Below are positions 6,929 to 59,940 of a DNA stretch of 64,000 bases, in pieces. Each line of letters starts with the position of its first letter. Within the stretch, counting starts at the first letter, position 1. The stretch is from the IMG/VR virus record IMGVR_UViG_3300029305_005280; one strand, written 5' to 3'. Source of the DNA: a virus. Lineage: Duplodnaviria; Caudoviricetes. A model generated the notes under the pieces. The model was given only the letters and a program-made list of their open reading frames with translations. It was not told the DNA's origin and ran no database searches. A program made the position numbers and the translations under genes.

Positions 6929-7642
6929 TTGTTAGTTGACCTTCTCAGTATGGATAATTATGTTAACTTTAATATAAAACTTGCTGAAATTCTTGGGCTG
7001 CACCCTGCAATCTATATTAGTGAATTGCTTAACATAAATGAAAAAGCTGTTCGTAAAGATAAGGTAGCCGATAATTGTTTTAAAGTAGTTAGAAGTTATA
7101 TCACAAAGAGAACAACATTATCCATCGAAGAACAAAAAGAAATTGATGCTTTACTTGTTAGTATTGGTGTACTAAAAGTAAACCCAGAAAGTAGCGATGC
7201 ATTGACATTGGACCTGACAATATTAACATCACTTGTATCTGCGGAACCGACAGATATTGAAAAACTTAAAAAGATTGTAAATACAACTAAGCCAAAGAAG
7301 AGAACAAAGGCTCAAGTAATAATTGAACAACTAAAAACACTTGTTGTAGTTGAGAATGAAGAGTTGCGTCAAGCATATTATGATTGGATTGATGCTGTTA
7401 ACGCAAAACAAGGATGGATGTCAGCAAAGTCTGTTACGGTAGGGCAAAAAACTATTGATGCATATTGCAATCATAATCTCGATTTAGCTTTGCAACTTCT
7501 TGAGATAGCATCAATGGGTGGATATAGAGATATACAGTGGGCCATAAATACATACGAAAAAGATTATAAATTAAATTATAGAATACCCGCTGCACCTGTT
7601 AAACAAAGAGTCACTACGGCATTAAGTGAGGAGGTATTCTAA
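6929..7642 (+). CDS. Putative replication initiator (wHTH + DnaD-like)
   Basis: The N-terminus 'NIKLAEILGLHPAIYISELL...ITKRTTLSIEEQK' is typical of phage initiators, and the gene sits directly upstream of a DnaC-like loader. Confidence 0.6.
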   Translation: MLVDLLSMDNYVNFNIKLAEILGLHPAIYISELLNINEKAVRKDKVADNCFKVVRSYITKRTTLSIEEQKEIDALLVSIGVLKVNPESSDALTLDLTILTSLVSAEPTDIEKLKKIVNTTKPKKRTKAQVIIEQLKTLVVVENEELRQAYYDWIDAVNAKQGWMSAKSVTVGQKTIDAYCNHNLDLALQLLEIASMGGYRDIQWAINTYEKDYKLNYRIPAAPVKQRVTTALSEEVF

Positions 7643-8330
7643 TTTGATATTGAGTAATGATTGTTTTACAAAAGATATTTGTGCAAAGTTTAAAAAAGGT
7701 CATTGTGTCGATGGTGAGTTTTGCATCAAATTATTCAAACTCAATGCTTTATATGACCAGGCATTGATTAGTGACAAGCAACGTCAAAGAATCAACTTGA
7801 GGATTGACGCAGATGGTACGGATAGGAATGAATTTCAAAGATTACAAAATATTGAAAACGATATTTTGAATTTTGTGAATGAAGGATGTAACCTATATCT
7901 CTATTCTACAACATGTGGTAATGGAAAATCGTCTTGGGCCCTCAGGCTAATTCAATCATATTTCAATAAAATATGGCCTTCCGCAACAATTGAATGTAAA
8001 GCATTGTTTGTAAATGTTCCAAAATTTTTTCTTGCACTTAAAGATAATATTAGTGTAAAAAGTGATTATATACAACATATAAAAGATAATGTTGCAGAGT
8101 GTGATATTGTTGTCTGGGACGATATCGGAACTAAGGTTGGAACTGAATTTGAAGTTGAAAATTTGTTGAATATCATAAATAATAGAATTGATAACGGTAA
8201 ATCAAATATTTACACATCAAATATAACTCCTGTTCAATTGCAGGAAAGAGTGGGAGAGAGACTGTATTCCCGTATTATAAATCTTTCTACAAATATTGAA
8301 CTTAGAGGAATGGATAAAAGAGGTTTATAA
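7626..8330 (+). CDS. DnaC/IstB-like helicase loader ATPase
   Basis: Walker A STTCGNGKS, Walker B VVWDDIG, and YTSN and RLYSRI motifs. Confidence 0.85.
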   Translation: MRRYSNLILSNDCFTKDICAKFKKGHCVDGEFCIKLFKLNALYDQALISDKQRQRINLRIDADGTDRNEFQRLQNIENDILNFVNEGCNLYLYSTTCGNGKSSWALRLIQSYFNKIWPSATIECKALFVNVPKFFLALKDNISVKSDYIQHIKDNVAECDIVVWDDIGTKVGTEFEVENLLNIINNRIDNGKSNIYTSNITPVQLQERVGERLYSRIINLSTNIELRGMDKRGL

Positions 8331-9595
8331 TGGTTCAGTTACAATTTATCAATAAACTTATTAGTACTGGTGACACATCATTATTACTAATGAATAATCT
8401 TACTGATGAGTTTTTTAGCGATTATAAGAAAGAGTATCATTGGATAAAGGAACATATAAATAAATATGGCAATTGTCCTGATATGCACTCTTTTATAGAT
8501 AGGTTTCCTGATTTTGATGTTGTTGATGTGAAAGAGACAACATCTTATCTTATAGATGAATTGTATCAGGATTATAACAAAAGAAAACTTGCAGGTGTTT
8601 TTAATCGTGTTAGAGAGTTAATCAATCAAGATAAGATTGATGAAGCAATGGCTGTATATACAACTGCTGCATCTGATGTTGTTCAATCAACTCATCTTGA
8701 GACAGTTGACATATTTCATAACACTTCACGATATAATGATTATGTTGATAAATGTACAGCATTTGATAAGTTCTATGTAAAAACAGGATTCAAAGAATTG
8801 GATGAACTTATTGGCGGTTGGGACCGCTTGGAAGAATTGGGTACAATCGTTGCAAGACCCGGTATCGGTAAATCGTGGGTTCTACATAAAGTTGCGTTAG
8901 CAGCTGCAGAACAAGGGCTTACAGTTGGAATCTATTCTGGTGAGATGAGCGAAAATAAGGTCGGATATCGTATTGACACTCTTATCTCACATATTTCAAA
9001 TAGTGCTATTATGCGTGGCAATGATTCTGTTCAGCTTGATTACAAGCGGTATATGGAAGAACTTCCAAACAAGTTTAAAGGTACAATCAAAGTTTTAACT
9101 CCAGCAATGATAAATGGAGCCGCAAGTGTTACAGCTTTAAGAGCATTTATTGAAAAAGAGAAGCTTGATATATTGTGTGTTGACCAACATTCATTGCTTG
9201 AAGATGATAGACGAGCACGAAACCCTGTTGAGAAAGCAGCTAATATTTCACGAGACCTTAAAAATTTACAGGTATTGAAAAAGATTCCTATTATTGCGGT
9301 ATCTCAGCAAAATAGAGATGCAACAGAAAATGGTCCTAGTACTGCAAATGTAGCTCAGTCTGATAGAATTTCACAGGATAGTACAGTAATTGTTTTTCTT
9401 GAACAGAAAGATAATGTTTTAACACTTAATCTCGTAAAAGCAAGAGATAGTGGTAATGGTAAAAAATTACAGTATGCTGTTGATTTTAATAAAGGTATCT
9501 TTACTTTTATACCAACGGAAGAAAGTGTTCAGTCACCACAAGCTGTTGCTGATTTGATTGATGAATATGAAGGTGAAGGCGTGGACGCATTTTAA
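8330..9595 (+). CDS. dnaB: Replicative DnaB-like helicase
   Basis: Motifs TGFKELD, ARPGIGKS, SGEM, VDQ, SQQNR, SDRISQDS and KARD. Confidence 0.9.
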   Translation: MVQLQFINKLISTGDTSLLLMNNLTDEFFSDYKKEYHWIKEHINKYGNCPDMHSFIDRFPDFDVVDVKETTSYLIDELYQDYNKRKLAGVFNRVRELINQDKIDEAMAVYTTAASDVVQSTHLETVDIFHNTSRYNDYVDKCTAFDKFYVKTGFKELDELIGGWDRLEELGTIVARPGIGKSWVLHKVALAAAEQGLTVGIYSGEMSENKVGYRIDTLISHISNSAIMRGNDSVQLDYKRYMEELPNKFKGTIKVLTPAMINGAASVTALRAFIEKEKLDILCVDQHSLLEDDRRARNPVEKAANISRDLKNLQVLKKIPIIAVSQQNRDATENGPSTANVAQSDRISQDSTVIVFLEQKDNVLTLNLVKARDSGNGKKLQYAVDFNKGIFTFIPTEESVQSPQAVADLIDEYEGEGVDAF

Positions 9596-10607: not shown

Positions 10608-11477
10608 ATGGCACAAGTTTCGTTTGATGCTGTTCCTGCTGAAAATCAGGGCGGCGGTAATTTTAATTCTGTTGAGTTTTTTACTCTAAGAAATGATGGA
10701 GATGAAGCGCTTGTAAGAATTCTTCATGACAGTACAGACTCATTCAATATCTTTACTGTCCATGATAATCTTTCCGTAAATGGCAAACGCAGAAAGGTAA
10801 ATTGTTTAAGAAGTCCAAAGGACCCTGTTGAAATGTGTCCGCTTTGTGCAAGTGGTAATAATATTGTAAATAGAATTTATATCAATATGCTTGTATATGG
10901 AAAAGATGCAAATGGTCAGATGACTATCACACCTGTGGTTTGGGAGCGTAGTTTTGCTTATGCATCAAGACTTAAAGTACTTATTGATGAATATGGTCCT
11001 CTTTCACAGTCAATTTTTAAGATTAAGAGAAGTGGCGCTGCAGGAAGTATGGAAACAAAATATGATATTCTATACTGTAACCCCAAAATTTATCCTGATA
11101 ATCTGTATCCAATTGCAAATACAGAAAAGTTTGAAGGATATTCCGCACTTGGCAGCGTGATTATGAATAAAACTGCTGCTGATATGAATGTGTTCTTAAA
11201 TACTGGTGCATTCCCTGCAGCACCTCAGAATGAAAATGCAAATGCAGCACCTCAGCAGATGAGTTATCAGCCAAAAGTTGAAACAAACGCACCTGTTTAT
11301 TCGGAGGTTCCGCCTGCAATTCCTGTAAATCCTACACCAGCAACAGGTGGTTATGTTCCTCAGGGAACTGGTACACCGAGCGCAGCACCACAGAGATGGA
11401 ACACAACCGGAGCACCTGCTCCTGTGGTTGAGAGTCCTTCAACCACAGGAAATGGGCCTGGACCTAGATATTATTGA
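10608..11477 (+). CDS. gp32-like single-stranded DNA-binding protein
   Basis: 'FFTLRNDGDEALVRIL...H...C...CPLC...FKIKRSG...TKY' pattern with a Pro-rich tail; lies between primase and polymerase. Confidence 0.75.
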   Translation: MAQVSFDAVPAENQGGGNFNSVEFFTLRNDGDEALVRILHDSTDSFNIFTVHDNLSVNGKRRKVNCLRSPKDPVEMCPLCASGNNIVNRIYINMLVYGKDANGQMTITPVVWERSFAYASRLKVLIDEYGPLSQSIFKIKRSGAAGSMETKYDILYCNPKIYPDNLYPIANTEKFEGYSALGSVIMNKTAADMNVFLNTGAFPAAPQNENANAAPQQMSYQPKVETNAPVYSEVPPAIPVNPTPATGGYVPQGTGTPSAAPQRWNTTGAPAPVVESPSTTGNGPGPRYY

Positions 11478-13954
11478 TGGCAGGGTCTTTATGGGGCGAA
11501 GAGTTTGTTATTCCTAAAACTCCTCCAAAGAAAGTTATAAACAAGGTTAATAACCCCAAAGATGCAACTAAAGTTGTAACAAAAGCATTGAAATCTAATA
11601 GCCTCCCACTTGAGTTTAGGTTGGAGGCTATTAGGACTAATGTACTTAAGATACTTGGAAGATATGCAGACCGTACTCAGGTAATCAGGACAAGAGAAGA
11701 GTTAACTGCATATATTGATGCTGCAATTCAAAATGGCGTTATAGCTGTCGACACGGAGACAAATAATAGTCTTGACCCTATAACTTGTAAGTTGATGGGC
11801 CCGTGTATTTATACCCCAGGTCAAAAGAATGCTTACATACCACTAAATCACATACATCCTGTTACTCGTGTTAGGCTTGAAAATCAGCTTACTGAACAGG
11901 ATATCATTGAAGAATTTAGTAGGTTGACTGATATCAAGATTATCATGCACAATGGTAAGTTCGATTATCAGGTTATAAAATGTACTTGTGGTTTAGCATT
12001 GAAATGTTACTGGGATACAATGATAGCTGTTCGTATTCTCGACGAGAATGAAAAACGGGCAGGATTGAAGGAACAATATATAGATAAGATTGATTCTTCA
12101 ATTGAAAAGTACTCAATTGAGCACTTGTTTAAAGATGTTGAATATGCAGTTGTTGACCCTGAAATATTTGCTTTGTATGCTGCTACTGATGCTTTCATGA
12201 CCTATGAATTATACAAATGGCAAGAAGCACAGTTTAATAGAGCGGGGCATGAAAGAATAAAAGAATTATTCTTTGGTATTGAGATGCCTGTTATGGAAGT
12301 TGCAGCAGAAATGGAGCTAACAGGAGTTTGCATCGATAAAGAGTATGCAAGTAGATTAAGTAAAAAATATCATAAATTTATTGATGATGTTGATATTAGA
12401 ATTGCTGAACAACTTGAACAGTATCGCGATGTGATTTCTGAATGGAGAAAAACACCGGAAGCAAACTTTAAAGCACAGAAGGAAAATAAAAAGGGCGAAT
12501 TAACTTATGCAAAATCAAAAAGTGAACAGTTGAAGGACCCACCTGAGTTAACAAGTCCGACTCAGTTTGCTATACTATTATATGATGTTCTAGGAACAAA
12601 AGTTGTTGATAAGAAAAAGCCCAGAGGCACTGGTGAAGACATTCTTGTTCATATTGATAATCCATTATGTAAATTAGTATTAGAAAAAAGAGGACTTGAA
12701 AAATTAGTTGGTACATATATTGATAAGATACCAGGTTGTGTAAATGATGCAGATGGACGATTACATGCACATTTTAATCAGCTTGGTACGGATACGGGTC
12801 GATTTAGTTCTTCGGACCCTAACTTACAAAACATTCCCTCAAAGAATAAAGAAATTCGTTTGATGTTTGTTCCGTCACCCGGTTATGTGATGGTAGGCGG
12901 TGACTTTAGTCAACAGGAGCCCCGACTTTTGAGCAACTATGCAATGGATGAAAACATGATGAATGCATACCGTCAAGGAAAAGATTTGTATGCAACTATT
13001 GCAACTCAGATTCATAATAATACATACTGGGATAATATGGAGCATTTTGAAGACGGAACTCCTAACCCTGCTGGTAAGAAGCGTAGAAGTGGAGTTAAGA
13101 GTTTGATGCTGGGCATTATGTACGGTATGGGCTCTGCATCTTTAGCAGAAGCTATCGGAGGCACTATCAAAGATGCTCAGAAAATCATTGATGATTTCTA
13201 TGCAGGTTTTCCAAAAGTAAAGAAATGGATTGATGAGACTGACAGTAATGCCAAAAAGTATGGCTATGTTGAAGACTTCTGGGGAAGACGCAGAAGGTTA
13301 CCTGATATTCAACTTCCTAAATACAAGATTGTAGAAAAGAGTGCTTCAAAGAATTCAGTGGATATAAATCCTCTTCTTGGTGCAAAAGGAATTGTTAAAA
13401 AGACTGTTAATCCTTTGATTGCTCAGTATCAAAAACAACTTGAAGAAGCAAGAGGATGGCAGCAAGTAAGCAAGATTAAATCAGATGCATTACTTAATGG
13501 CATTGAAATACATGATAATGGTGGATTTATTGCATACGCAGAAAGACAATGTGTAAATGCTCGTGTTCAAGGTGGGGCTGCAACAATGTCAAAACTTGCA
13601 ATGAGGAAAGTATATGACAATCCTGAGTTGCGTAGACTTGGATTCCGGATGCTATTACAGGTGCACGATGAACTTATTGGAGAGTGCCCCATTGAAAATG
13701 CTGATGAGGTAGCTGCTTTGCTTTCTGACATCATGAAGCATTCAGCAGAACCCGTTGTTACAATTCCATTCAAATGTGACACTGAAGTCAGTGCTTGCTG
13801 GTATTATGATGATTATAGTAATACACTTAAAGCAGAATTCAATAAGCTCCTTGACAAAGGAATGTTGAAAAATGATGCATACAATACTATTCTAAACGAG
13901 CACACTGAGTGTACCGAAGAACAAATCAAAGATTTCTTATCAGATATATTGTAA
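11474..13954 (+). CDS. polA: Family A DNA polymerase with 3'-5' exonuclease and no 5' nuclease domain
   Basis: Exonuclease motifs DTET, HNGKFD and YAATD; polymerase motifs TGRFSSSDPNLQNIP, DFSQQEPR (A), RRSGVKSLMLGIMYG (B) and QVHDE (C). Confidence 0.95.
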   Translation: MMAGSLWGEEFVIPKTPPKKVINKVNNPKDATKVVTKALKSNSLPLEFRLEAIRTNVLKILGRYADRTQVIRTREELTAYIDAAIQNGVIAVDTETNNSLDPITCKLMGPCIYTPGQKNAYIPLNHIHPVTRVRLENQLTEQDIIEEFSRLTDIKIIMHNGKFDYQVIKCTCGLALKCYWDTMIAVRILDENEKRAGLKEQYIDKIDSSIEKYSIEHLFKDVEYAVVDPEIFALYAATDAFMTYELYKWQEAQFNRAGHERIKELFFGIEMPVMEVAAEMELTGVCIDKEYASRLSKKYHKFIDDVDIRIAEQLEQYRDVISEWRKTPEANFKAQKENKKGELTYAKSKSEQLKDPPELTSPTQFAILLYDVLGTKVVDKKKPRGTGEDILVHIDNPLCKLVLEKRGLEKLVGTYIDKIPGCVNDADGRLHAHFNQLGTDTGRFSSSDPNLQNIPSKNKEIRLMFVPSPGYVMVGGDFSQQEPRLLSNYAMDENMMNAYRQGKDLYATIATQIHNNTYWDNMEHFEDGTPNPAGKKRRSGVKSLMLGIMYGMGSASLAEAIGGTIKDAQKIIDDFYAGFPKVKKWIDETDSNAKKYGYVEDFWGRRRRLPDIQLPKYKIVEKSASKNSVDINPLLGAKGIVKKTVNPLIAQYQKQLEEARGWQQVSKIKSDALLNGIEIHDNGGFIAYAERQCVNARVQGGAATMSKLAMRKVYDNPELRRLGFRMLLQVHDELIGECPIENADEVAALLSDIMKHSAEPVVTIPFKCDTEVSACWYYDDYSNTLKAEFNKLLDKGMLKNDAYNTILNEHTECTEEQIKDFLSDIL

Positions 13955-13958
13955 GATA

Positions 13959-14007
13959 TACTTGAGTTCAAATACCTTAATCCTCAAGTAAAATAAAAAA
14001 TTAGGAG
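13959..14007 (+). promoter_or_regulatory. preQ1-I-like riboswitch candidate overlapping the yhhQ Shine-Dalgarno
   Basis: 8-bp stem tacttgag/ctcaagta with loop ttcaaataccttaatc, then an A-rich tail aaataaaaaa and ttaggag (SD). It lies directly upstream of a queuosine-precursor transporter. Confidence 0.65.
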
Positions 14008-14017
14008 TTTTAAAAAA

Positions 14018-14725
14018 ATGTTAACAAAAGTAAAAAATGAATTAAAGGAATACAGCAGACTTCTACATACAATTCCTTCATGGGTATTAACTTTGTTTGT
14101 CCTTAGTGTAGTTGCAATGAATCTTTTTGCCAATAAATCAATCAATCTTCCGGTCAGCTGGTTAGCTCTTGATTGTGGAATGATTTTTGCTTGGGCTCCA
14201 TTTCTTTGTATGGATATTGTTGTAAAACATTTCGGACCAAAAGCAGCTGTTAGATTAACAATTATTGCAACACTTGTCAATGTTTTGGTTTCAGTTATGT
14301 TTTTCTTTGGTGCACTTATTCCAGGCACATGGGGAGAATCATTCAATGGTGACATGAATATGATAAACACAGCTCTCAACAACACATTGAAGGGAAATTG
14401 GTATATTGTATTTGGTAGTACACTTGCATTCATTGTTGCAGGAATTGTTAATAGTATTACAAATCATGCAACAGGTAAGTTATGTAAAAATGACAATTTT
14501 CGTACATTTGCTCTAAGAACATATGTGTCAACGTTCATTGGTCAATTTGTAGATAACATGGTTTTCTCACTTGTAGTAAGTCAAGTATTGTTCGGGTGGA
14601 CCCTTTTACAGTGTGTCACTTGTTCTCTTACTGGAGCTCTGTGTGAACTGCTTTGTGAAACAGTATTCAGTCCTGTCGGTTGGAGAATTGTTAAGAAATG
14701 GAAAAAAGATAACCTTACAGTGTAA
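14018..14725 (+). CDS. yhhQ: VUT/YhhQ-family queuosine precursor transporter
   Basis: Multi-TM protein with 'NLFANK', 'PFLCMDIVVKHFGPK', 'GSTLAF' and 'LRTYVSTFIGQFVDNMVF' signatures. Confidence 0.88.
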   Translation: MLTKVKNELKEYSRLLHTIPSWVLTLFVLSVVAMNLFANKSINLPVSWLALDCGMIFAWAPFLCMDIVVKHFGPKAAVRLTIIATLVNVLVSVMFFFGALIPGTWGESFNGDMNMINTALNNTLKGNWYIVFGSTLAFIVAGIVNSITNHATGKLCKNDNFRTFALRTYVSTFIGQFVDNMVFSLVVSQVLFGWTLLQCVTCSLTGALCELLCETVFSPVGWRIVKKWKKDNLTV

Positions 14726-14738
14726 GGATAGAATATGT

Positions 14739-14774
14739 GGGATAGTTGAATTACTTTCAGCTATCCCTTATAAT
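14739..14774 (+). promoter_or_regulatory. Promoter (TAG-TTGAAT-N17-TATAAT) superimposed on an inverted repeat (terminator- or operator-like)
   Basis: The hairpin gggatagttgaa/ttcagctatccc contains the -35 box. Confidence 0.65.
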
Positions 14775-14808
14775 ATAACTATAAACAATGAAACGGAGTT
14801 AAAAATAA

Positions 14809-15756
14809 ATGAGTGTTGTGTATTTCTTTAGCGGGGCTTACAAGCAGCCTTTAAAAAGAGAACTAAACATTGACCAGTTGTTTTCTGTTTATCATGAAAA
14901 AACATTGATTAAGAAAACAATTCAATATAAGAAAGAACATCCTGAATATACAGCAAAGATTATGGTCGATAGTGGTGCGTTCTCTTTATATCAGAAATTT
15001 AAAAAGAATGGTGAAATTCTTACTGATGAAGAATTAACTGCTTATACTGACGATTACATAGAGTTTTTGAATGAAGTAGGAGATGACTTATATTCATTTG
15101 TTGGAGTGGATACTGTTCCTAATCCCGATGACGTTGACCAAAGTTTTGCACAGAAGACTTGGGACAATTACCTTTATATGTATGAAAGACTAAGACCAGA
15201 GATTCGAGATAAACTAATGCCTGTTTTCCACTTTGGAGAAGATTTTAAGTGGTTAAGAAATATGTTGGAACACAAACACTCTACAGGTAAAGGTCTTGAG
15301 TGGGTTGGACTTGCTATCTCACTTGAAGGTAATCAGAAAGTAAGAATTAGTTGGGCAAATGAATGTCGTCGTATTATCAATGAAAGTAGCAACCCTAATG
15401 TTAAGACACATGCTTTTGGTGTAGGTGTTAAATCAGTTCTTGACCACATTGAAGTTACTTCGACAGATGCAACTTCTTGGTTAAAGCGTGCTGCTTACGG
15501 TATGGTAAGTATTCATGACAAAACAATTTACATAAGTGAACTTCAACAGCAAAAATTTGATGGAAGACATCTCACTGAAAAATCTGTGGCAATGCAAGGT
15601 GATGTTGAAAAGATTGTAAATGACCGAGGATTTACGCTTGAAGAGTTAGCAACTGACCCTTATGCAAGAGCAAAATTTAATATACTTGATACAATTGATT
15701 GGGTGAATAACTTAAATCAGAATAAGTTTTTAACCGCAAAGAAGGAACTATGGTAA
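14809..15756 (+). CDS. dpdA: TGT-fold base-exchange enzyme, DpdA-like 7-deazaguanine DNA transglycosylase
   Basis: VDSGAF, VDTVP, PVFH, GLA, HAFGV and STDATSW map onto TGT/DpdA catalytic motifs. It is adjacent to yhhQ, and no CxCxxC Zn site is seen. Confidence 0.75.
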   Translation: MSVVYFFSGAYKQPLKRELNIDQLFSVYHEKTLIKKTIQYKKEHPEYTAKIMVDSGAFSLYQKFKKNGEILTDEELTAYTDDYIEFLNEVGDDLYSFVGVDTVPNPDDVDQSFAQKTWDNYLYMYERLRPEIRDKLMPVFHFGEDFKWLRNMLEHKHSTGKGLEWVGLAISLEGNQKVRISWANECRRIINESSNPNVKTHAFGVGVKSVLDHIEVTSTDATSWLKRAAYGMVSIHDKTIYISELQQQKFDGRHLTEKSVAMQGDVEKIVNDRGFTLEELATDPYARAKFNILDTIDWVNNLNQNKFLTAKKELW

Positions 15757-15757
15757 T

Positions 15758-16468
15758 ATGGAAAGAGCATTGATAACAGGAACAAGTTGTGGTGTAGGTA
15801 GGGCTGCAGCAGTTAAGTTTCTAGATGAAGGATATGAGGTTTATGGACTTGATATCAAAGAACCTACTATTGTACATAAGAATTATCATCATGTTATTTG
15901 TGATGTAAGTAAGAAAGAACAACTTCCTTATATCAAAGACCTTGAATACATTGTTAACAATGCAGGCATTGTAACTCCACAGGTAGATGCAATTGATGTT
16001 AATCTTTATGGTTACATCAATATTCTTGAAGAATATGGTGACTGTCCTTCTCTTAAAAGTATTGTCCAAGTAGGCAGCACTGCTTCATACAAAGGTTACG
16101 ATAATATAAGGTATTGTGCCTCTCAGGGCGGAAGAGACGCACTAACAAAGTGGGCTGCAAACAATTTTGGTAACGATAAGAGACATGTTATTGTTAATTC
16201 TCTTAATCTTGATGGTATCGTAGCAGCTGACCCTGAAAAAGGAATTCAAGGTACATCGCTTGAACCTGAGTTATATGCACAGCCCCATTTGATGGAAACT
16301 ATTAAGAACCTCAGCGTGTTAAAGAAATTAGCAACTGTCGAGGAAATTGCGGAATGGATTTATTTCTTACTTGTTAAGAATACAGTGATGACTGGTCAAA
16401 TTCTGTCAATTGATGGAGAACTTATTGGTGCTTATAGATTTATTCAGTATCCGGGGTGGAACGATTAA
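15758..16468 (+). CDS. Short-chain dehydrogenase/reductase with atypical YxxxQ motif
   Basis: TGTSCGVG (TGxxxGxG), NNAG, catalytic S, YCASQ in place of YxxxK, and C-terminal TGQILSIDG. Confidence 0.85.
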   Translation: MERALITGTSCGVGRAAAVKFLDEGYEVYGLDIKEPTIVHKNYHHVICDVSKKEQLPYIKDLEYIVNNAGIVTPQVDAIDVNLYGYINILEEYGDCPSLKSIVQVGSTASYKGYDNIRYCASQGGRDALTKWAANNFGNDKRHVIVNSLNLDGIVAADPEKGIQGTSLEPELYAQPHLMETIKNLSVLKKLATVEEIAEWIYFLLVKNTVMTGQILSIDGELIGAYRFIQYPGWND

Positions 16469-17352
16469 TGAATAAGATTTGTGCATTGATTCCTTGCTTA
16501 ATGCTGGATAATAACAGAGAGATAAATAAAAAATCAATAACCTCAAATCAAGAGCATCTAAAACTAGATGCTTATGTAATATATGACCAATGTTTCACAG
16601 AAAATGATTTCATTCCCGATTGTGAATATATTGGTCACGCTGATAAGCGTATGGGATGGGTTGAACCACGAAATGCACTTTTAAGATGGTTTTACAACTC
16701 AGACTATGACTATGCTTTTTGGATTGATGCAAATTCAACAGTGTCAAAACCTACACTAAATGATTTAACTACAATCATCGATAATATTAGAAATGGTACA
16801 TTAGATGATTGTGATTCTATATTTGCTACTTTAGGGATGTGGGTATCTCAAGAAAGGATTCAGTGTAAATCAGCTGAAGACTTCTATGATAATGTAAGAT
16901 TACTTCCATCAAGAATGGATAGAAGTTATAATTGGATGCACGGCATGTTTCATAAGAATTTTAAAAAATACTATAATCAAGAGTTCTATATTGATGAAAG
17001 ATGTGATACACGTAAAGGAACTCCTGATGATGTTTATTTTGCAAGATTGCTGAGAAAGTATACTAACTGCTGGGTAGCCCCCACTGTTGTAGTAAATAAG
17101 CCCTCATCTAAGATGTCTTGTACGTGGGCAAATGAAAAAGGAACATACGATTATCCTCCTGTTCTATTTGATATTGTGGATGATTATATCCTTGAAGAGT
17201 CAGAAAAGAATAGTTATCATATATGCAATAAAAATGTGCAGTTAAAGGAAATTGTAATTCCAAGAAATGATTATCTGCGTGAACATATTAAACATTATGT
17301 ACCACGAGGTAAAAAGAAAGAAACTTTAAATTCAAGAATGACATTGTTTTAA
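16468..17352 (+). CDS. GT-A fold glycosyltransferase (GT2/TAGT-like)
   Basis: 'GWVEPRNALL...DYDYAFWIDAN' (variant DxD region) and 'PDDVYFARLL' (ED-type acceptor base motif). Confidence 0.6.
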   Translation: MNKICALIPCLMLDNNREINKKSITSNQEHLKLDAYVIYDQCFTENDFIPDCEYIGHADKRMGWVEPRNALLRWFYNSDYDYAFWIDANSTVSKPTLNDLTTIIDNIRNGTLDDCDSIFATLGMWVSQERIQCKSAEDFYDNVRLLPSRMDRSYNWMHGMFHKNFKKYYNQEFYIDERCDTRKGTPDDVYFARLLRKYTNCWVAPTVVVNKPSSKMSCTWANEKGTYDYPPVLFDIVDDYILEESEKNSYHICNKNVQLKEIVIPRNDYLREHIKHYVPRGKKKETLNSRMTLF

Positions 17353-17365
17353 AGGAAGTGAACTG

Positions 17366-19090
17366 ATGAACCTTTTAGTACTATCAGGTGGTAGTGGAAA
17401 TGATTCATTGATTAGAGGACTTAAAAAGTTATATCCCTCAATCAACGTAAAGGTACTTGTTAATGCATATGATGCAGGTAAATCAACAGGTATTTGTAGA
17501 AAAGTGACTGATACATTAGGAGTGTCAGATATTAGAAAAAATCATATTAGAATGTATGAATCAATGACAAAGTATCCTAACAAATGTATTCTTGAATTCT
17601 ATAATGATAGATATGATTTTACAAAAGGGCACGAATGTGAAGAAATTCTACAAAAGTTATCAGAATGGAATCTGAGTCAATTTGGTGATTTTGTTCAAGC
17701 ATTCTTTTCCCGAACTAAATCAAAAGAGTATACATATAATGATTTTAATGTGTCCAATATTGTTTATGCAGAGATGTATGCTGCATTTGGATATAAGAAA
17801 ACAAATTCTATTTTTTGTGGTTTACTGGGCATTGACGATTTCTTACTATTAAATTCATTTGACAACGTTTACATTCAAGCAAGAACAAAATCCAATCATC
17901 TAATCGAAGATGAAGGGGATATTGTGGAATATTGTAATCCCTCTGACCCTATTGTTGGTATTGAGTATATCGGTGATTATAACAATGAGTTGAATCAAGA
18001 AGCAGTTAACGCAATCCAGTGGGCTGATTATATTGTTATTTCAACTGGAACATTCTGGAGCTCAATCTATCCTACATTACAGTATGGTGATTTGTATAAG
18101 TATATAAATGCATCTACTGCAAAGAAAGTGTGGGCAATAAACAACGAATGTGACAAAGATTCTTATGGTGTTGGAAGTAATCAATTTATCGAGTTTTTTG
18201 AAGAACTCGGGTTGAACTTAAATGATTTTCTTATTCTTGAGAATACTGATGCAGTACAAATTTTGAAAGAAGAAAATCCCACAAAGAACATTGTTTTCAA
18301 ATCAATGGATTCTTACAACGGGAAGCATAACCCCGATAAGTATGCTGCAGAAATTTTAAGATTGTATTATGGTATTGATTCTGCTGATTCATATGATACA
18401 ATATTGTTTGATTTTGATGATACACTGTGGGCAAGAGATGCCACTACCATAAATCCTCAGTCTTTATACTATTCTATTGATAATCTTAAACTGATGAATC
18501 AAAATTTAAGCAACAAGAGTGCAATTATTTCAGGTAACTCTTACAAAAGTATTCATAATAAGTTAGTCACAGTTTATGGTGCTCACTTTGATTCATTTGA
18601 TGTGGATGTGTGGGCTGATGCAAATACTAATTGCTATCGTAAAGGTGAGTTAGTTGATTCAATTTCTGATTTTATCATGGACAATGAAACTACAAAACTT
18701 ATTGTTGATTATCTATCAAGAAGATACAATGTTATTCCTGATGGAATTAAATTTGAAAATGATACTACTTATTTAAAGATAAAGCCTCTTGATGGTTTTA
18801 CAAGGAGAATTCTTGCCGATTACCTAAATAACTATGTATTTAAAAACATTGGATGCAGCCAATGCAAGGCAGTCACAACAGGTAATACGACATTAGATAT
18901 CATACATATAAACAACACTAAGGCAAAACTTCTGGATGTTTTAGATTGTAAGAATAAGAAAGTTCTTTATATTGGAGACGAAGTTAACTTTGGTAATGAT
19001 GCAGACATTGCAAGTAAATGTACTGCATATGTAAACACAAGTGGTGTTGAAGAAACACATTGTATATTGGAGTTGTTAAGTAAAAAATGA
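17366..19090 (+). CDS. CofD/YvcK(GlmR)-like transferase fused to a HAD-IIB (PMM-like) phosphatase/mutase
   Basis: N-terminal SGGSG, NAYDAGKSTG, SDIRKN and AIQWADYIVISTGTFWSSIYP; C-terminal DFDDTL, SGN, K and IGDEVNFGND. Confidence 0.8.
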   Translation: MNLLVLSGGSGNDSLIRGLKKLYPSINVKVLVNAYDAGKSTGICRKVTDTLGVSDIRKNHIRMYESMTKYPNKCILEFYNDRYDFTKGHECEEILQKLSEWNLSQFGDFVQAFFSRTKSKEYTYNDFNVSNIVYAEMYAAFGYKKTNSIFCGLLGIDDFLLLNSFDNVYIQARTKSNHLIEDEGDIVEYCNPSDPIVGIEYIGDYNNELNQEAVNAIQWADYIVISTGTFWSSIYPTLQYGDLYKYINASTAKKVWAINNECDKDSYGVGSNQFIEFFEELGLNLNDFLILENTDAVQILKEENPTKNIVFKSMDSYNGKHNPDKYAAEILRLYYGIDSADSYDTILFDFDDTLWARDATTINPQSLYYSIDNLKLMNQNLSNKSAIISGNSYKSIHNKLVTVYGAHFDSFDVDVWADANTNCYRKGELVDSISDFIMDNETTKLIVDYLSRRYNVIPDGIKFENDTTYLKIKPLDGFTRRILADYLNNYVFKNIGCSQCKAVTTGNTTLDIIHINNTKAKLLDVLDCKNKKVLYIGDEVNFGNDADIASKCTAYVNTSGVEETHCILELLSKK

Positions 19091-19791
19091 TTTATGGATT
19101 AATCATAAGCGCGGGAAATCAAAAAAGATTTGCTAGTGAGAAACCAAAGGCGTTGCTTGACACACCCATTGGAGAAACGTTGCTTGATTTGAATATGGCA
19201 AATATGCATGAAGTGTGTGACCTTGTTTATGTTGTTTGTTCAACTCAGAATCAATCATGGTTTGACACTTCTGATAAGATTATTATTGATTCAGGTAAAG
19301 GTTGTGGAGACGCTGTAATGAAAGCATTACAGCAACTATCCTTGAAAGCTGATGATAAGGTCTTCATTCAATGGGGCGATTCATATCATAAGGTAAGCTT
19401 GTACAGATTACTTCAAGATAGATATATAGGTAAATTTTTAATTCCTTGTCAAAAAGAAGATAATCCATATGTTTGGATTATTCCTGAACGTAGGGGCGTG
19501 AAAGTATATTTTTCAAAATATGGCGAAACTTGTACTTCGGGATATCATGACCTAAGTTTGTTCTATGGTAATGCTTTAGAGTTGCTCTCATATCTTGAAG
19601 AATTTCGTGACCAAATTGAAAAAGATGGCAACTATATACATAAGCACGGTAATGAAATGCAATTCCTTGATGTGTTTAATGAAACAGTAATGCCCGCAGC
19701 TATTATAGAGGTATCAGATTATCAAGGTTTTTCATTCAACACAATAGATGAATTTCAAAAAATTATAGATAAGTTTGATTTTTCAAACTAA
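19087..19791 (+). CDS. Sugar-phosphate nucleotidyltransferase (GlmU-N/NTP_transferase-like)
   Basis: ISAGNQKRF...PKALL, GKGCGDAV and QWGD. Confidence 0.8.
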   Translation: MIYGLIISAGNQKRFASEKPKALLDTPIGETLLDLNMANMHEVCDLVYVVCSTQNQSWFDTSDKIIIDSGKGCGDAVMKALQQLSLKADDKVFIQWGDSYHKVSLYRLLQDRYIGKFLIPCQKEDNPYVWIIPERRGVKVYFSKYGETCTSGYHDLSLFYGNALELLSYLEEFRDQIEKDGNYIHKHGNEMQFLDVFNETVMPAAIIEVSDYQGFSFNTIDEFQKIIDKFDFSN

Positions 19792-19834
19792 CATATTATA
19801 ATAAAAATAAAAAAGATATAATGGAGATGACTCA

Positions 19835-20959
19835 ATGATTATTAGAACAGAATTGCTACAGGATTCCTGTGCAAAAATTCTTAGCGCAGTTGACTCGAAT
19901 GTTCTTTCTGCAGTAACTGAAACTCTTGAGATTAGTGCTTCCGACGGTGTATTTACAATGGCAGTAACTAACAGAGAATATTTTGTGGAAATTAAGATGG
20001 ACATCGAAGTTGCTGAAACATTCCACGCAACCGTTAATGCAAATCTTTTCCTAAAACTTATTGCAAAGGTAACCTCTGAAACAATTGAATTGAATACAAA
20101 TGGTAATTCTTTACATATCAAGTGTAATGGTGATTATAAGATTCCTCTTATCTATGATGGAGAAGCACTTATGGAATTACCTCGCATTAGCATTGAAGAA
20201 GTAAACGAAACTATTGACGTCGATAGTTCTATTCTTCGTTCTCTTGTGAATTACAATAGCAAGGAATTAGGTAAAGGGACAATTTCTAAACCAATTCAAC
20301 GTCTCTATTATGTTGATAAAGAGGGAGCTATTACTTTTACAACTGGTGCGTGTGTTAATAAGTTTGATATTCCGATGACTTCAAAACTTCTTCTTAATGA
20401 TAAACTTGTTAAGTTGTTTAAGTTGTTTAAGGATACAAAAGTTAAGATGACTGTTGGTCATAATAAGATTAACAATGATACTTTCGCAACTGTTGTTTCA
20501 TTTGAAGCACCTGGTGTGTATATTACAGCAGCCCTTAGTTGTGACGATAGTATGTTTGTATCATATCCTGTTGACCCTGTTAGAGGTCGTGCAAATTCAG
20601 TATATCCTTACGCTGTTGCAGTTAACAAAGATACCCTACTTCAGACCATTGATAGATTGATGCTATTCAATCAGACTTCAAGTAAAGCCGATTTCTCACA
20701 GGCAATTGTAAAACTTGAATTTGGAAGTGATGCAGTTGTTGTGTCAGACCGTATGGGAATCAACAAAGAAGAAATCCCATATAGCAAATCAATTGAAGGA
20801 ATTGATACATATAGCGCACTTATTGACAGTGGCGACCTAACCAAAACACTTGCAAGTTGCGTAAATCAGTTTGTAAATATTGCTTTTGGCAATAGTCAAG
20901 CATTTGTACTATCAGAGGGAATGATTAAGTGGGTAATTCCCGAATGCACTGAGGCCTAA
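19835..20959 (+). CDS. dnaN: DNA polymerase III beta-type sliding clamp
   Basis: 374 aa with the three-domain beta-clamp pattern ('FTMAVTNREYFV', 'LFLKLIAKV', 'YPVDP...VNKDTLLQTIDRL'); clamp-loader genes are present. Confidence 0.8.
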   Translation: MIIRTELLQDSCAKILSAVDSNVLSAVTETLEISASDGVFTMAVTNREYFVEIKMDIEVAETFHATVNANLFLKLIAKVTSETIELNTNGNSLHIKCNGDYKIPLIYDGEALMELPRISIEEVNETIDVDSSILRSLVNYNSKELGKGTISKPIQRLYYVDKEGAITFTTGACVNKFDIPMTSKLLLNDKLVKLFKLFKDTKVKMTVGHNKINNDTFATVVSFEAPGVYITAALSCDDSMFVSYPVDPVRGRANSVYPYAVAVNKDTLLQTIDRLMLFNQTSSKADFSQAIVKLEFGSDAVVVSDRMGINKEEIPYSKSIEGIDTYSALIDSGDLTKTLASCVNQFVNIAFGNSQAFVLSEGMIKWVIPECTEA

Positions 20960-21430
20960 GTGGCTCAAAATAGAGGAAAGGTGTTTGAGGAGAAAGTAAA
21001 ACAGGACCTCCTCAAACTGCCTGATATTTGTGTTGAACGACTTCCAGACCAGATGTCAGGATTTAAAGGTTCAAAAAATGTATGTGATTTTGAAGCTTAT
21101 TGGTACCCACATCTATATTATCTTGAATGTAAAACAACACACGAAAATACATTTGCTCTGTCAGCTTTAACTCAATATGATAAGCTACTTGAGAGAAAAG
21201 GTAAAAAAGGTGTTAGGTCTGGAGTTATGCTATGGTTCATAAAACATGATAAAGTTTGTTATGTTCCAATAGCAACATTTGAAAAGTTAAAAAATGATGG
21301 TAAGAAATCTGTAAACATTAAGATGTTGGGAACGGATGAATACCGAATAATTGAGATACCCGCTGTAAAGAAAAGAGTTTTTCTTGACTGCGATTTTAAT
21401 ATATTAAAACAATTGCAGGAGGGTGATTGA
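20960..21430 (+). CDS. recU: RecU-like Holliday junction resolvase
   Basis: NRGKVFE, CDF, LECKTT and Q motifs. Confidence 0.8.
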   Translation: MAQNRGKVFEEKVKQDLLKLPDICVERLPDQMSGFKGSKNVCDFEAYWYPHLYYLECKTTHENTFALSALTQYDKLLERKGKKGVRSGVMLWFIKHDKVCYVPIATFEKLKNDGKKSVNIKMLGTDEYRIIEIPAVKKRVFLDCDFNILKQLQEGD

Positions 21431-21984
21431 TGTACATAAATTCAGAATTTGATTCTTGGGTTAAGCAGAATGTAAATAATATGGATTATGCTGTAATTGA
21501 ACCTCCTTGTTTAAATAGGGGTCAGTATTCTTACATATGGTCAAACATAGGGCTTATTGATATTTTTCAGACATTTGATATTAAGTATCTATTTATGTGG
21601 GTAGATGTTAATACGCTACCAAGGCTGTTTACCGTTTATCAAGAATCGGATTATGAGTTCAAAGCATTACTTCCGTGGGTAAAGATTACAAAAACTGATA
21701 ATCTTTTTTATACTTTAACCAACACACTTAAAAGTAATGTTGAATATCTTGCAGTATTTCAGAAACCGAATGTTCCAAAGTTAAAATTTAATGATAAGAA
21801 CATTATTGTTGATGAACAAGATTCATACACTCATAAACCAAAAAAGTGGGAAGAATACTTACAGAAGCAATTATCTTATAGCGGTTTAGAAGGAATCTAT
21901 ATCCATTCAAATGGTGACTATGAGAGGTTGATTTCAATTAACCAGGACGATGAACCTAAAGTTCATAAAACCGAATTATTTTAG
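21427..21984 (+). CDS. MT-A70-family methyltransferase-like protein with degenerate catalytic motif (EPPC)
   Basis: VIEPPC...YLFMWV...LPWVK...NVEYLAVF...THKP follows the MT-A70 motif order. Confidence 0.6.
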   Translation: MMYINSEFDSWVKQNVNNMDYAVIEPPCLNRGQYSYIWSNIGLIDIFQTFDIKYLFMWVDVNTLPRLFTVYQESDYEFKALLPWVKITKTDNLFYTLTNTLKSNVEYLAVFQKPNVPKLKFNDKNIIVDEQDSYTHKPKKWEEYLQKQLSYSGLEGIYIHSNGDYERLISINQDDEPKVHKTELF

Positions 21985-26925: not shown

Positions 26926-27948
26926 TTGATGGCTGAATCATTAGCAGTTCGTTATCGTCCTAAAGATTTTACGGATGTTTGCGGACAAAGTTCAATCATA
27001 AAGATTCTTGAGCGACAAACACAGCTGCAAGAATACAAGCATACATATTTATTTACAGGGCCCTCAGGAACTGGTAAAACTACAATTGCAAGAATATTAG
27101 CAAGTAAAATAAATGGTAGTTTAGCAGGACTTGAGGAACTTGACGCTGCATCAAACAATGGTGTTGAGAATGTAAGAACGATTATCAAAGGAGCTCAGGA
27201 ACGGTCAATTAGTAGTAAGTATAAGATTTATATTATCGACGAATGTCACGCTCTAAGTAATCAGGCTTGGCAAGCATTTCTTAAATGCATTGAGGAACCT
27301 CCTGAGTTTACAATATTCATGTTTTGTACAACGGACCCTCAAAAAATTCCAAGTACTATTGTAAATAGATGCCAGCGTTATAATTTAAGTAAGATTAGTA
27401 CTGAGCAGATTAGAAGTCGTCTTGCATTTATCTGCCAGAAAGAGGGTTTTACTAATTATCAAGAAAGTATTGACTACATTGCAAAAATAAGTGATGGTGG
27501 TGCCCGTGATGCAATTTCAACTCTTGAAAAGGTAGCATCTTTGAGTACTGATATTAGTATCCAGAATACACTTGATGCTCTGGGTACGTATTCTTATGAT
27601 ATGTTTTTTGAATTGGTGAATAATATTATTGACAGTAATCAGGTAGAAGTAGCAAAAACAATTTCTACAATCTATCATAAAGGTAATGACTTGAAACTTT
27701 TTGTTGACCAATTCTTTAATTTTTGTTTGGATGTTACAAAATACTGTTTGTTTAAATCAACTGATATGATTGGTATTCCTTCAAGTCTTGAGGACAAACT
27801 ACAAGCAAGTGTAAATTTTGAGAATCCTGAAAAATATTACATGCACATTGTTGATAAACTTCTCGAGTTAAAAAATAGAATTAAAAATGACACATCAGTT
27901 AGAACAACAGTTGAAACAACATTCTTACATATATCAAGGTGGGAATAA
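26926..27948 (+). CDS. dnaX: Clamp loader ATPase subunit (DnaX gamma-like, lacking Zn module and tau C-terminus)
   Basis: LAVRYRP, GPSGTGKTT, ELDAASNNGV, IIDECH, LKCIEEPP, NRCQ and GGARDA. Confidence 0.92.
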   Translation: MMAESLAVRYRPKDFTDVCGQSSIIKILERQTQLQEYKHTYLFTGPSGTGKTTIARILASKINGSLAGLEELDAASNNGVENVRTIIKGAQERSISSKYKIYIIDECHALSNQAWQAFLKCIEEPPEFTIFMFCTTDPQKIPSTIVNRCQRYNLSKISTEQIRSRLAFICQKEGFTNYQESIDYIAKISDGGARDAISTLEKVASLSTDISIQNTLDALGTYSYDMFFELVNNIIDSNQVEVAKTISTIYHKGNDLKLFVDQFFNFCLDVTKYCLFKSTDMIGIPSSLEDKLQASVNFENPEKYYMHIVDKLLELKNRIKNDTSVRTTVETTFLHISRWE

Positions 27949-28740
27949 ATGGTTGGTCAGGTAAAATTATTACAGCTTATAGATAGATATATTGATACAG
28001 GAACATTACCAAGAACTTTACTCTTTGAGGGTGACTATGGTTGTGGTAAGCATACTGTGACTTCATACATTTCGGAAAAATTAGGTCTTCCTGTTTTAGA
28101 CATAACGGAAACATTATCATTGGAAGTGTTGGAGCAGATTACTCTGAAACCGGTTCCTCAAATATATTTAATCAATAGCAGCAGCATATCTGTAAAAGAG
28201 CAAAATATGATATTGAAGTTTCTTGAGGAACCATTAAAAAATTCATATATCATTATACTTGCTGAAACGAAAACACAATTGTTAAACACTGTAATCAATA
28301 GATGTGTCAGTCTAAGTTTCGAGAAGTATACAAAGGAAGAGCTTCTTGAATTTTGCACAAGCTCCAATACAGATATACTAGAGTTTGCAGATACACCCGG
28401 TCGTGTTAGGTTGTTTGAACAGCATCCTGTGACTGAAATGAAATCATTTTGTGAGAAGATATTTTTACAAATTAGTATTGCAAATTATTCAAATATACTA
28501 ACAATTCCTAATCGTATTAACTTCAAGGACAATGATAAGTTGTTTGATTTCAATGTTTTTGTTTTCGTGCTTATTCATGTTGCCATGAATCTATATATTA
28601 AAGGAATGATTCCATATAAAGCATATCTAGTGACTGATGAGTTTTACAATGATACAAAGATTCCGCATATAAATAAACTACAGCTGTTTGAGCATTATTT
28701 GTTTAGGCTTAAACTGGTTTATGAGGAGGCTAGTAAATGA
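27949..28740 (+). CDS. holB: Clamp loader delta-prime subunit
   Basis: LLFEGDYGCGK, QNMILKFLEEP and LLNTVINRC. Confidence 0.82.
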   Translation: MVGQVKLLQLIDRYIDTGTLPRTLLFEGDYGCGKHTVTSYISEKLGLPVLDITETLSLEVLEQITLKPVPQIYLINSSSISVKEQNMILKFLEEPLKNSYIIILAETKTQLLNTVINRCVSLSFEKYTKEELLEFCTSSNTDILEFADTPGRVRLFEQHPVTEMKSFCEKIFLQISIANYSNILTIPNRINFKDNDKLFDFNVFVFVLIHVAMNLYIKGMIPYKAYLVTDEFYNDTKIPHINKLQLFEHYLFRLKLVYEEASK

Positions 28741-29651
28741 CACTTGAGGAATTTAAAACTTCGATAGAACAAAAAACAGTGGGTAATCAGCTGGTTATAT
28801 TTGTATATGAAGATGTGCCATTTGTAGCTGACCAGTATATTCGTGAAATTGCAAAAATCAAAGAACAAAAAATACAATATCTTGAATCAATTGATAGTTT
28901 ATCAAGTGGAGTTGCAGATATATTTGGAATGTCCGATGTAAAAGACGGTATAAGAGTATACCGAACAAAAGAAATTGAAACGCTATCAGATAAGTTAAGA
29001 TATGAAACAGACTTATATATAGTAGTTAACAAGATAAAAGATAAGGACATTTTATCCATATACTCGGAGTATATTATCAATATTCCTAAACTTGAAGGCT
29101 GGCAATTGAAAGATTATATGTATTCAGTTGCCGAGGGTGTAGACCACAAATCCTTGGATTGGCTTATTAGTGCAAGTGGTGAAGATATTTATAGACTTGA
29201 AAATGAACTTGATAAATTTAGGTTGTTTGGTGTGAATGAACAAAAGTATTTATTCAATGATATGCTTCATGATGGAGCCTTTGTTGATTTATCAAGTTTC
29301 AATGTATTTAACATAACAAATGCAGTCACAAGTAGGGACTATAATACCTTAAAAAATGCATTAAAAGAAATAAAAAGTTTTGATGCTGAACCCTTAGGTG
29401 TTGTGACTTTACTTTATCAAGGTTTTAAAAAACTTATACAAGTGTGGTTAGCAAAACAAGCAACACCTGATAATACAGGACTCAAGTCAAATGTGATATA
29501 CGCACTCAATAAACAGCCGAGGGTGTATACTAAGGAACAATTGATTGCTGCATTTCAACTTTTAAACAATATTGACAAAGAATTAAAAAGCGGTAATATT
29601 GAAATCAAATGGTTGATTGATTATGTCATATGCAGAGTGATGACATATTAA
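28737..29651 (+). CDS. holA: Clamp loader delta subunit
   Basis: 'DIYRLENELDKFRL', 'FNITNAV' and 'LNNIDKELKSG' delta-like signatures; follows dnaX-holB. Confidence 0.75.
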   Translation: MTLEEFKTSIEQKTVGNQLVIFVYEDVPFVADQYIREIAKIKEQKIQYLESIDSLSSGVADIFGMSDVKDGIRVYRTKEIETLSDKLRYETDLYIVVNKIKDKDILSIYSEYIINIPKLEGWQLKDYMYSVAEGVDHKSLDWLISASGEDIYRLENELDKFRLFGVNEQKYLFNDMLHDGAFVDLSSFNVFNITNAVTSRDYNTLKNALKEIKSFDAEPLGVVTLLYQGFKKLIQVWLAKQATPDNTGLKSNVIYALNKQPRVYTKEQLIAAFQLLNNIDKELKSGNIEIKWLIDYVICRVMTY

Positions 29652-33819: not shown

Positions 33820-34015
33820 GGACAAATTGTATTATATATTAGAGGAACTCAATAGTCATAAAAGAACACCTAATCAGGTTATGCAGAGTTGTATTGAAGA
33901 TAGGTTAGAGAGTTCCTTGAACTCTTACAAGCACTCTTTGGAAAATAGTTATTCTTACTTAAGCACCAAAGATGAAATGAACGTGCTTAAAAAATTAAAC
34001 AGAGGTTTAAAATGA
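33809..34015 (+). CDS. Hypothetical protein
   Basis: Coupled ORF within the operon. Confidence 0.5.
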   Translation: MLFRDKLYYILEELNSHKRTPNQVMQSCIEDRLESSLNSYKHSLENSYSYLSTKDEMNVLKKLNRGLK

Positions 34016-34338
34016 GAAATTTGCTTGAAGACCTTTCAGTTCTGACTACTGTGGGTAAGTATAACTATGAGGAATTGGCCAATAAAACAATTGCAATATT
34101 GAGTCATAATGTGGAAGAATCAATTTGTGATAAAGAGGAACTAGTTACCACTGATATTGGAATTGGCCAATTAACAATAGCGTGTGTTGATGATAGAATA
34201 TATTATAAATTCATTCCGTCACGTAAACTTGAAACCTCAATAAAAGATACGTTTAGAAATAAACAGAGTGCTCTAAAGTTAGAAATTGATGAAACACTCG
34301 GAAAAAGAATAACTAATACATATAAGGATTTGTTTTGA
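34012..34338 (+). CDS. Hypothetical protein
   Basis: Coupled ORF with GAGG RBS. Confidence 0.55.
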   Translation: MRNLLEDLSVLTTVGKYNYEELANKTIAILSHNVEESICDKEELVTTDIGIGQLTIACVDDRIYYKFIPSRKLETSIKDTFRNKQSALKLEIDETLGKRITNTYKDLF

Positions 34339-57006: not shown

Positions 57007-57091
57007 GCGGGATTGGTGGAATTGGCAGACACAAGGGACTTAAAATCCCTCGGGTCAAACCGTACCGGTTCAAGTCCGGTATCCCGCACCA
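57007..57091 (+). tRNA. tRNA-Leu(UAA)
   Basis: Cloverleaf with long V arm, loop CTTAAAA and CCA end. Confidence 0.95.
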
Positions 57092-57154
57092 ATGTCTGAG
57101 TTTGCAAGTGTTCACCGAAGACATAAATCCTAAACTTGCACAACCTTCCTATAT

Positions 57155-57229: not shown

Positions 57230-57289
57230 ATTACAAGTCTAAGTGTTACTTAGCGTGGGTACTACGATAGTGCCACCCTCCTTTTATAT

Positions 57290-58409: not shown

Positions 58410-58413
58410 AGAT

Positions 58414-59934: not shown

Positions 59935-59940
59935 ATATAT

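Follow-up and report, generated by a model that had tools for sequence, protein, structure and literature searches.

The 64,000-nucleotide virus record IMGVR_UViG_3300029305_005280 (Duplodnaviria; Caudoviricetes), referred to at its full length as the window, contains a phage replication module in which every gene lies on the + strand. Among the genes of this module are those for three unrelated, predicted DNA-modifying enzymes, a DpdA-like DNA guanine transglycosylase (14809..15756), a GT-A fold glycosyltransferase (GT; 16456..17352) and an MT-A70-like protein (21427..21984), together with a gene for a beta-type sliding clamp, DnaN (19835..20959). The three enzymes share a short peptide at their C-terminal ends, reading KKELW, RMTLF, and KTELF, respectively. 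The original prediction for this DNA, made from its letters alone, had quoted these three termini and read them as clamp-binding tails; all are present in the sequence, and their conservation, their disorder and the modelled placement of the DpdA tail in the canonical cleft of DnaN bear out their description as terminal short linear motifs of the beta-clamp-binding type. With a probability of roughly 0.65, the tails are QxxLF-type beta-clamp-binding motifs that dock on the phage sliding clamp.

The DpdA-like protein is, by sequence comparison, a homolog of the characterised phage DpdA proteins. It matches phrog_887 at 2.8e-36 and, by tblastn, DpdA of phage Dp-1 (33.7% identity, E 5e-37) as well as the DpdA proteins of 9g and CAjan. 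Pfam returned no TGT family match for it, and a PDB-chain sequence search returned chance antibody matches only. The structural model, with a predicted local distance difference test score (pLDDT) of 91.5, has a TGT-type barrel for which Foldseek finds archaeosine TGT 1j2b (E 2.3e-7) and bacterial TGTs, and residues D54, D101, and D220 are invariant in the alignment (A2) used for both fold and complex modelling. The protein is best described as a putative DNA 7-deazaguanine-inserting transglycosylase. Its C-terminus reads ...FLTAKKELW, and the tail (residues 301-315; 15709..15753) is a coil without secondary structure along which pLDDT drops from 70 to 53. Every one of 120 close homologs (59-98% identity) ends in [KR]x[EDST]L[WF] or KVDLGW, preceded by a linker that varies, and related uncultured contigs show the ends ELW, SLF, ALW, TLW, or DLGW. 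Pentapeptide (KVSLF, KKSLF, KKELW) and hexapeptide (KVDLGW) forms thus both occur among DpdA relatives. The peptides that bind the bacterial beta clamp likewise fall into a pentapeptide class, QL[SD]LF, and a hexapeptide class, QLxLxL, which the xSLF and DLGW forms of the tail mirror.

The motif extends beyond the clade of the window. An exhaustive search of DpdA representatives, one per cluster at 50% identity, gave 131 full-length sequences that are 28-63% identical to the query; a terminal L[FW] is found in 92 of these, and the motif in one variant or another in 110. The flank of the family tails is basic, with 2.8 K/R against 0.4 D/E per 8 residues; position 1 is usually K or R, and Q is found at position -5 in 16 of the 92 tails. 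The DpdA proteins of studied phages end in RQRRLF (Dp-1), RVMELF (CAjan), RIQELF (a Pseudomonas phage), and RLQDLFDE (9g), the last with LQDLF two residues before the end. On sequence evidence the motif is therefore family-wide in phage DpdA. Because it is family-wide and close to the bacterial QxxLF consensus, the proposal of a phage-specific [K/R]-x-[E/T]-L-[F/W] variant is unsupported, and for the same reason the suggested orthogonality of the phage clamp to host clamp partners is not supported.

The second enzyme, the GT, has no match in Pfam or PHROG. Its model matches TarP (6h1j, E 5.8e-9), AvpGT, SpsA, and TarS in Foldseek, with TM about 0.5, and D83, D85, and D91, which are invariant in its orthologs, supply an acidic DxD-type motif; judged by this modelled structure the protein is a GT-A fold glycosyltransferase. 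Translation probably begins at the ATG at 16468. The C-terminus reads ...KKKETLNSRMTLF, with NSRMTLF as its last residues, and the tail (residues 285-298 of the 298-aa reading; 17308..17349) consists of a basic linker followed by RMTLF, modelled throughout with pLDDT below 50. All 7 orthologs keep L297 and F298, in one case with an extra terminal D, and the linker varies; in related contigs the GT ends in SLF, KLF, QLF, or TLF(D).

The assignment of the MT-A70-like protein is weaker than those of DpdA and the GT. Its PF05063 score of 22.6 bits lies under the 23.9 cut-off, and motif IV, expected as [DNSH]PP[YFW], reads EPPC in the window protein and in P0122, with DPPW or NPPW in the L011 and L001 orthologs. 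Because motif IV is degenerate (EPPC for DPPW), the protein is possibly not an active methylase, and the window copy may be catalytically inactive or altered and yet have kept its ELF tail. The C-terminus reads ...EPKVHKTELF, with KTELF at nucleotides 21967-21981; K181, E183, L184, and F185 are invariant in 4 sequences, and the ELF end is present on 5 of 5, this small number reflecting a word-based homolog search that gave only 2 matches. Of the tailed MT-A70-like enzyme that had been predicted, the tail is thus conserved and the enzyme is in some doubt. Conservation of the terminal motif, which had been named as a check, is found in the close relatives of all three proteins. In syntenic uncultured phage contigs, gene order is preserved and the DpdA, GT, and MT-A70-like tails, along with the polymerase start motif described below, are found in all.

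The shared ends exceed what composition would give. Four of the 71 window proteins end in L[FW], where 0.32 are expected (Poisson P = 3e-4); counting three such proteins only, P = 4e-3. The fourth, a 108-aa protein without Pfam match (34012..34338), ends in YKDLF; one ortholog has the same end and another ends in KEML. Given the KEML ortholog and the lack of a variable linker before the motif, this protein is a doubtful further clamp client and was not counted as one. The tail is likewise selective within the modification cassette. It is absent, in the window and in the syntenic loci, from the short-chain dehydrogenase/reductase (SDR; 15758..16468; PF13561, PF00106), from the CofD-HAD protein, that is, a CofD-like protein with a C-terminal extension (17366..19090; PF01933 3.5e-21; end ELLSKK), from the MobA/IspD-like nucleotidyltransferase (19087..19791; PF12804 2.5e-6; end KFDFSN), and from the Vut_1/YhhQ-type transporter (14018..14725; PF02592 2.9e-21; end KKDNLTV), a probable importer of the 7-deazaguanine precursor. 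The original prediction that the small-molecule enzymes (SDR, CofD-HAD, nucleotidyltransferase) lack the tail thus holds, and the occurrence of one motif on three unrelated folds and its absence from the small-molecule enzymes of the same cassette support a clamp-binding role. Selection acts on the peptide itself, since the codon for the conserved Leu varies (CTA, TTG, CTT, CTG, CTC, TTA), that for Phe alternates between TTT and TTC, and the ribosome-binding sites of genes downstream of the GT fall after the GT stop codon. On this codon evidence, a by-product of ribosome-binding sites is rejected as an account of the tail.

Related motifs are found on two components of the replication machinery. 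The family A DNA polymerase with 3'-5' exonuclease (11474..13954; PF00476 1.6e-86, PF01612 1.7e-15, phrog_17) probably has its true start at the ATG at 11477, and its beginning reads (M)MAGSLWGEEF, so that the MAGSLW noted earlier is indeed present. The motif MAGSLWGEEF (11477..11506) is followed by a variable basic linker of ~50 residues. S4, L5, W6, G7, and F10 do not vary among 9 orthologs, each of which has the motif within 1-3 residues of its start, and related contigs show M(x)1-3-SLWG[DE]xF. By analogy with the C-terminal tails, the N-terminal SLW motif is a candidate clamp-binding motif, and the family A polymerase is likely a client of the phage clamp. The clamp loader comprises three subunits (26926..29651; PF13177, PF00004, PF12169, PF21694), a DnaX-like ATPase (26926-27948), a delta-prime-like subunit (27949-28740), and a delta-like HolA (28737-29651). 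The ADIF that had been reported in HolA is present, within V-A-D-I-F-G at residues 59-64 (D-I-F-G at nucleotides 28917-28928), and I62, F63, and G64 are invariant in 3 orthologs.

The clamp itself is divergent. DnaN (374 aa) reaches PF00712 at 25.4 bits against a 24.4 cut-off, over the N-terminal domain only, and phrog_947 at 1.5e-14, and its profile matches the Helicobacter pylori beta clamp at 1.4e-6; a tblastn search of isolated phages with the window DnaN gave no match, and hhalign, in global and in local mode, did not connect this profile with E. coli beta. Because this direct profile alignment failed, DnaN and E. coli beta were aligned with MAFFT through ten other phage clamps, an alignment that at this divergence is approximate to within a few residues. 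A complex was modelled from two copies of DnaN and DpdA residues 284-315, with an alignment for each. The complex scored 0.61, whereas none of 3 controls scored above 0.02. Among 80 solved complexes 58 attained that mark, as did 2 among 110 mismatched pairs; these figures come from a calibration on single-chain pairs with other alignments and hold only roughly here. The runs agreed in at least 61% of contacts, with pLDDT of at least 50 for the partner and 89 for DnaN. In the modelled interface, only the last nine residues of DpdA (307-315) touch the clamp, and they contact DnaN residues 168, 170-172, 245, 248-249, 252, 329, 331, 355-356, 367, and 369-374. In the bridged alignment, the peptide cleft of E. 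coli beta (T172-L177, P242, R246, V247, Y323, V344, S346, V360-L366) maps to the same stretches of DnaN, and 11 of the 20 contact residues show little or no variation across the clamp family, compared with about a third of all positions. The model supports binding, with a predicted placement of the DpdA tail in the canonical peptide cleft, between domains II and III, of the phage clamp. A complex model of the tails on DnaN, which the original prediction had proposed as a check, thus exists for the DpdA tail, the sole tail modelled; by analogy, the GT, MT-A70-like, and polymerase motifs may use the same clamp site.

Gene linkage points to the same partner. A phrog_947 clamp gene lies within about 3 kb of dpdA in 10 of 10 DpdA phages examined (Dp-1, 9g, CAjan, the Pseudomonas phage, an IMG/VR contig, Cellulophaga phi3ST:2, BcepGomr, Pan1, Vibrio V07, and Vibrio 83AMN) and is the adjacent gene in 3 of the 10; the type of polymerase differs among them. 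This linkage is supportive and not decisive, because several of the ten phages are related and both genes belong to replication modules. It does bear on the possibility that the tails target the host beta clamp, instead of or besides that of the phage, and so bring the enzymes to clamps that the host has loaded, or enter into competition with host partners. Host and phage clamps are both of the beta type, and the nearness of the motif to the bacterial QxxLF consensus, including the tails with Q at -5, would suit a host clamp; the presence of a phage clamp gene near or next to dpdA in all ten phages, the full clamp loader encoded by the phage of the window, and the docking of the tail on the phage clamp in the model all argue for the phage protein. 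Use of the host clamp is a live rival and is, in our estimate, unlikely.

That several proteins share a terminal motif means that a common partner exists, without telling which. The tails could bind a different one, such as the polymerase, the helicase, or the SSB-like protein, or could mark the enzymes for recognition by an unfoldase or protease, a role that recalls the ClpX tag of MuA, in which a basic stretch is combined with a hydrophobic C-terminus. The strongly basic flank of the tails agrees with such a role, and other conserved terminal motifs do occur on replisome proteins of this phage (acidic ends with a final F on the DnaB-type helicase and on the product of open reading frame (ORF) 6929-7642, RYY on the SSB-like protein). 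The tail motif nevertheless fits both known classes of clamp-binding peptide, the model score falls from 0.61 with the clamp to 0.02 with an unrelated protein in the place of the clamp, and the gene linkage is to the clamp, so that a partner of this kind is slightly less probable than the host clamp. It is very improbable that the terminal L[FW] has no partner, being the structural end of a fold or a by-product of the overlapping signals of the next gene. The AAG AAG GAA codons just before the stop of the window's dpdA do resemble a ribosome-binding site for the gene that follows. Against this, the tails are low-pLDDT coil, three unrelated folds carry the same motif, the codons of the conserved L and F vary synonymously, the motif is kept even if a terminator comes next, as is the case in Dp-1, and four proteins carry it where 0.32 are expected.

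Several points weigh against docking of the tails on the phage clamp. The tail is not universal, since Cellulophaga phi3ST:2 DpdA and representative P0169 are without it despite a nearby clamp gene. A correlation in which tail-less DpdA proteins would come from phages without a clamp gene was sought among the representatives and not found, being contradicted by these two; in three further tail-less representatives the contigs are too short to judge the presence of a clamp. In the clade of the window the canonical Q is swapped for K or R. The complex model, in addition to the rough calibration given above, has a tail pLDDT of only about 50 and used the A2 alignment, drawn mostly from tail-bearing sequences, and its pass may partly reflect fold likeness because many complexes of beta clamps with peptides have been solved; such a result speaks of resemblance and not of affinity. 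Docking was modelled for one of the four proposed motifs, that of DpdA. That dpdA lies next to the clamp gene may reflect nothing more than membership of a common replication module. Lastly, the interaction between T4 alpha-glucosyltransferase and gp45, an analogous claim, was not reproduced in a 2025 preprint.

Each tail motif closes a disordered basic linker on a predicted DNA-acting enzyme, and the phage encodes its own beta-type clamp and a three-subunit clamp loader. If the tails do dock on this clamp, copies of it left behind on new DNA would draw in the modifying enzymes by way of its domain II/III cleft, and the exchange of guanine for 7-deazaguanine, together with further decoration, would take place at or just behind the fork. 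We infer that the tails tie base exchange and glycosylation to replication, and possibly methylation as well.

Clamp-binding peptides, and the use of the clamp as a tool-belt, are textbook matter for polymerases and repair proteins. The phage tails resemble the motifs of bacterial beta-clamp partners (Pol III alpha, Pol II, Pol IV, UmuC, MutS, Hda, delta) in being short terminal peptides on a flexible segment, with a Leu and a final aromatic residue, and in their modelled docking in the domain II/III cleft and against the C-terminal strand of a beta-type clamp. They differ in that the phage clients are DNA-modifying enzymes and not polymerases or repair proteins, in that position 1 is mostly K/R and not Q and a final Trp is common, and in that the phage clamp is so divergent as to be unlinked to E. 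coli beta by direct profile comparison. The clients of gp45 in T4 and RB69 (gp43, gp55, gp33) offer a second likeness, that of a phage clamp used as a tool-belt through hydrophobic C-terminal tails, although gp45 is a PCNA-like trimer and not a beta dimer. The older proposal, from in vitro work, of binding between T4 alpha-glucosyltransferase and gp45 would provide a precedent for DNA glycosylation alongside replication; the 2025 preprint that failed to reproduce it used C-terminally His-tagged enzymes, and tags of this commonly used kind would mask such a motif. In eukaryotes, PCNA tethers DNMT1 and UNG2 via PCNA-interacting peptide (PIP) boxes. The logic of coupling to the fork by a short clamp peptide is the same there, and the clamp family, motif, and chemistry differ.

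For DpdA the nearest comparison is bacterial. In the dpd cluster of Salmonella Montevideo, DpdA inserts 7-deazaguanine in dependence on DpdB, a ParB-like ATPase (PMC10164549). The bacterial pair thus consists of a homologous transglycosylase with a DNA-associated accessory, in place of which most phage DpdAs carry a clamp-type tail. Studies of 7-deazaguanine DNA regard DpdA as an enzyme that works by itself, after replication. They do not explain the spread of modification levels, from below 0.1% to 100%, or the need of bacterial DpdA, unlike phage DpdA, for DpdB (PMC10516641, PMC10164549). A clamp-docking tail would be a testable answer, in which the replisome delivers the enzyme to fresh DNA. 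Literature searches for DpdA or deazaguanine in combination with clamps found no paper that makes this link, and the main papers on phage DpdA do not mention the clamp. The clamp-binding motif is thus of a known kind; what is new is that its proposed clients are DNA-modifying enzymes and that it reaches family-wide in phage DpdA. The broader proposal, that most phage DpdAs (about 80% of diverse members) use the replicative clamp as a DNA-encircling accessory that replaces DpdB, and that whole hypermodification pathways of base exchange, glycosylation, and methylation are assembled on the clamp tool-belt, is tentative, and we place it somewhat short of an even chance. Were it true, phage DNA would be shielded from restriction as soon as it is made. 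The tail would also serve as a sequence mark by which neighbouring enzymes that act on DNA can be told from those that act on small molecules, and in the window this mark singles out the GT-A enzyme, not the SDR, the CofD-like protein, or the nucleotidyltransferase.

Other genes of the module and its relatives show features of their own. Ahead of the polymerase gene, the replication module encodes a DnaB-type helicase (8330-9595), a primase, and an SSB-like protein (10608-11477) without Pfam match; a RecU-like resolvase is encoded between the clamp and MT-A70-like genes and a RecA-like protein after the latter. A megablast search with the region found no match among isolated phages, that is, none that is close at the DNA level, and an Rfam search of window positions 13800-14900, which take in the gap before the transporter gene, found no preQ1 riboswitch at E up to 0.1. 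The SDR has a terminal signature of its own, YPGW[NDQ][DK], which is kept in nearly all orthologs and reads YPGWND in the window. In phi3ST:2 (L027, 2408-3582), the gene for the short, tail-less DpdA (240 aa) overlaps with one whose product has a ParB-like nuclease domain, and this product is, by analogy with bacterial DpdB, a possible alternative accessory of DpdA.

The modification cassette is modular, as six relatives show (L016, L017, L018, L019, L020, and L021), where the additions between the transporter gene and dpdA are a nucleoside 2-deoxyribosyltransferase, a GDSL-lipase-like protein, or one or two DUF7487 proteins; the L[FW] terminal motif is on none of these added proteins, and the GT, CofD-like, and nucleotidyltransferase genes are missing from some of these relatives. 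The family A polymerase gene is intact in the window and split in relatives L001, L002, L016, L019, and L021, with HNH, NUMOD3, or GIY-YIG homing-endonuclease genes between the pieces in L016 and L021. The RecA-like gene is also intact in the window, and in one relative (L018 12685-15150, 821 aa) it has a LAGLIDADG insertion.

Acidic tails that end in Phe constitute a second class of terminal motif, found on the DnaB-type helicase (EGEGVDAF) and on the product of the upstream ORF 6929-7642 (ALSEEVF). The pattern is kept in orthologs, as GDDNTF, EEDTF, GEDVF, and GGAPF for the former and GDEVF, GSEIF, and PEVVF for the latter, and recalls the acidic tails of T7 gp4 and gp2.5, which bind polymerase. 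In the SSB-like protein, RYY closes a long tail of low complexity that is rich in P, A, and Q; its orthologs end in VRYY, PRYY, TRYY, or RPRRY, and the usual acidic DDDIPF-type end is not seen. At the far end of the window (57007-63982), a + strand array holds 19 tRNA genes, with a G+C content of 0.40-0.45 compared with ~0.33 elsewhere.

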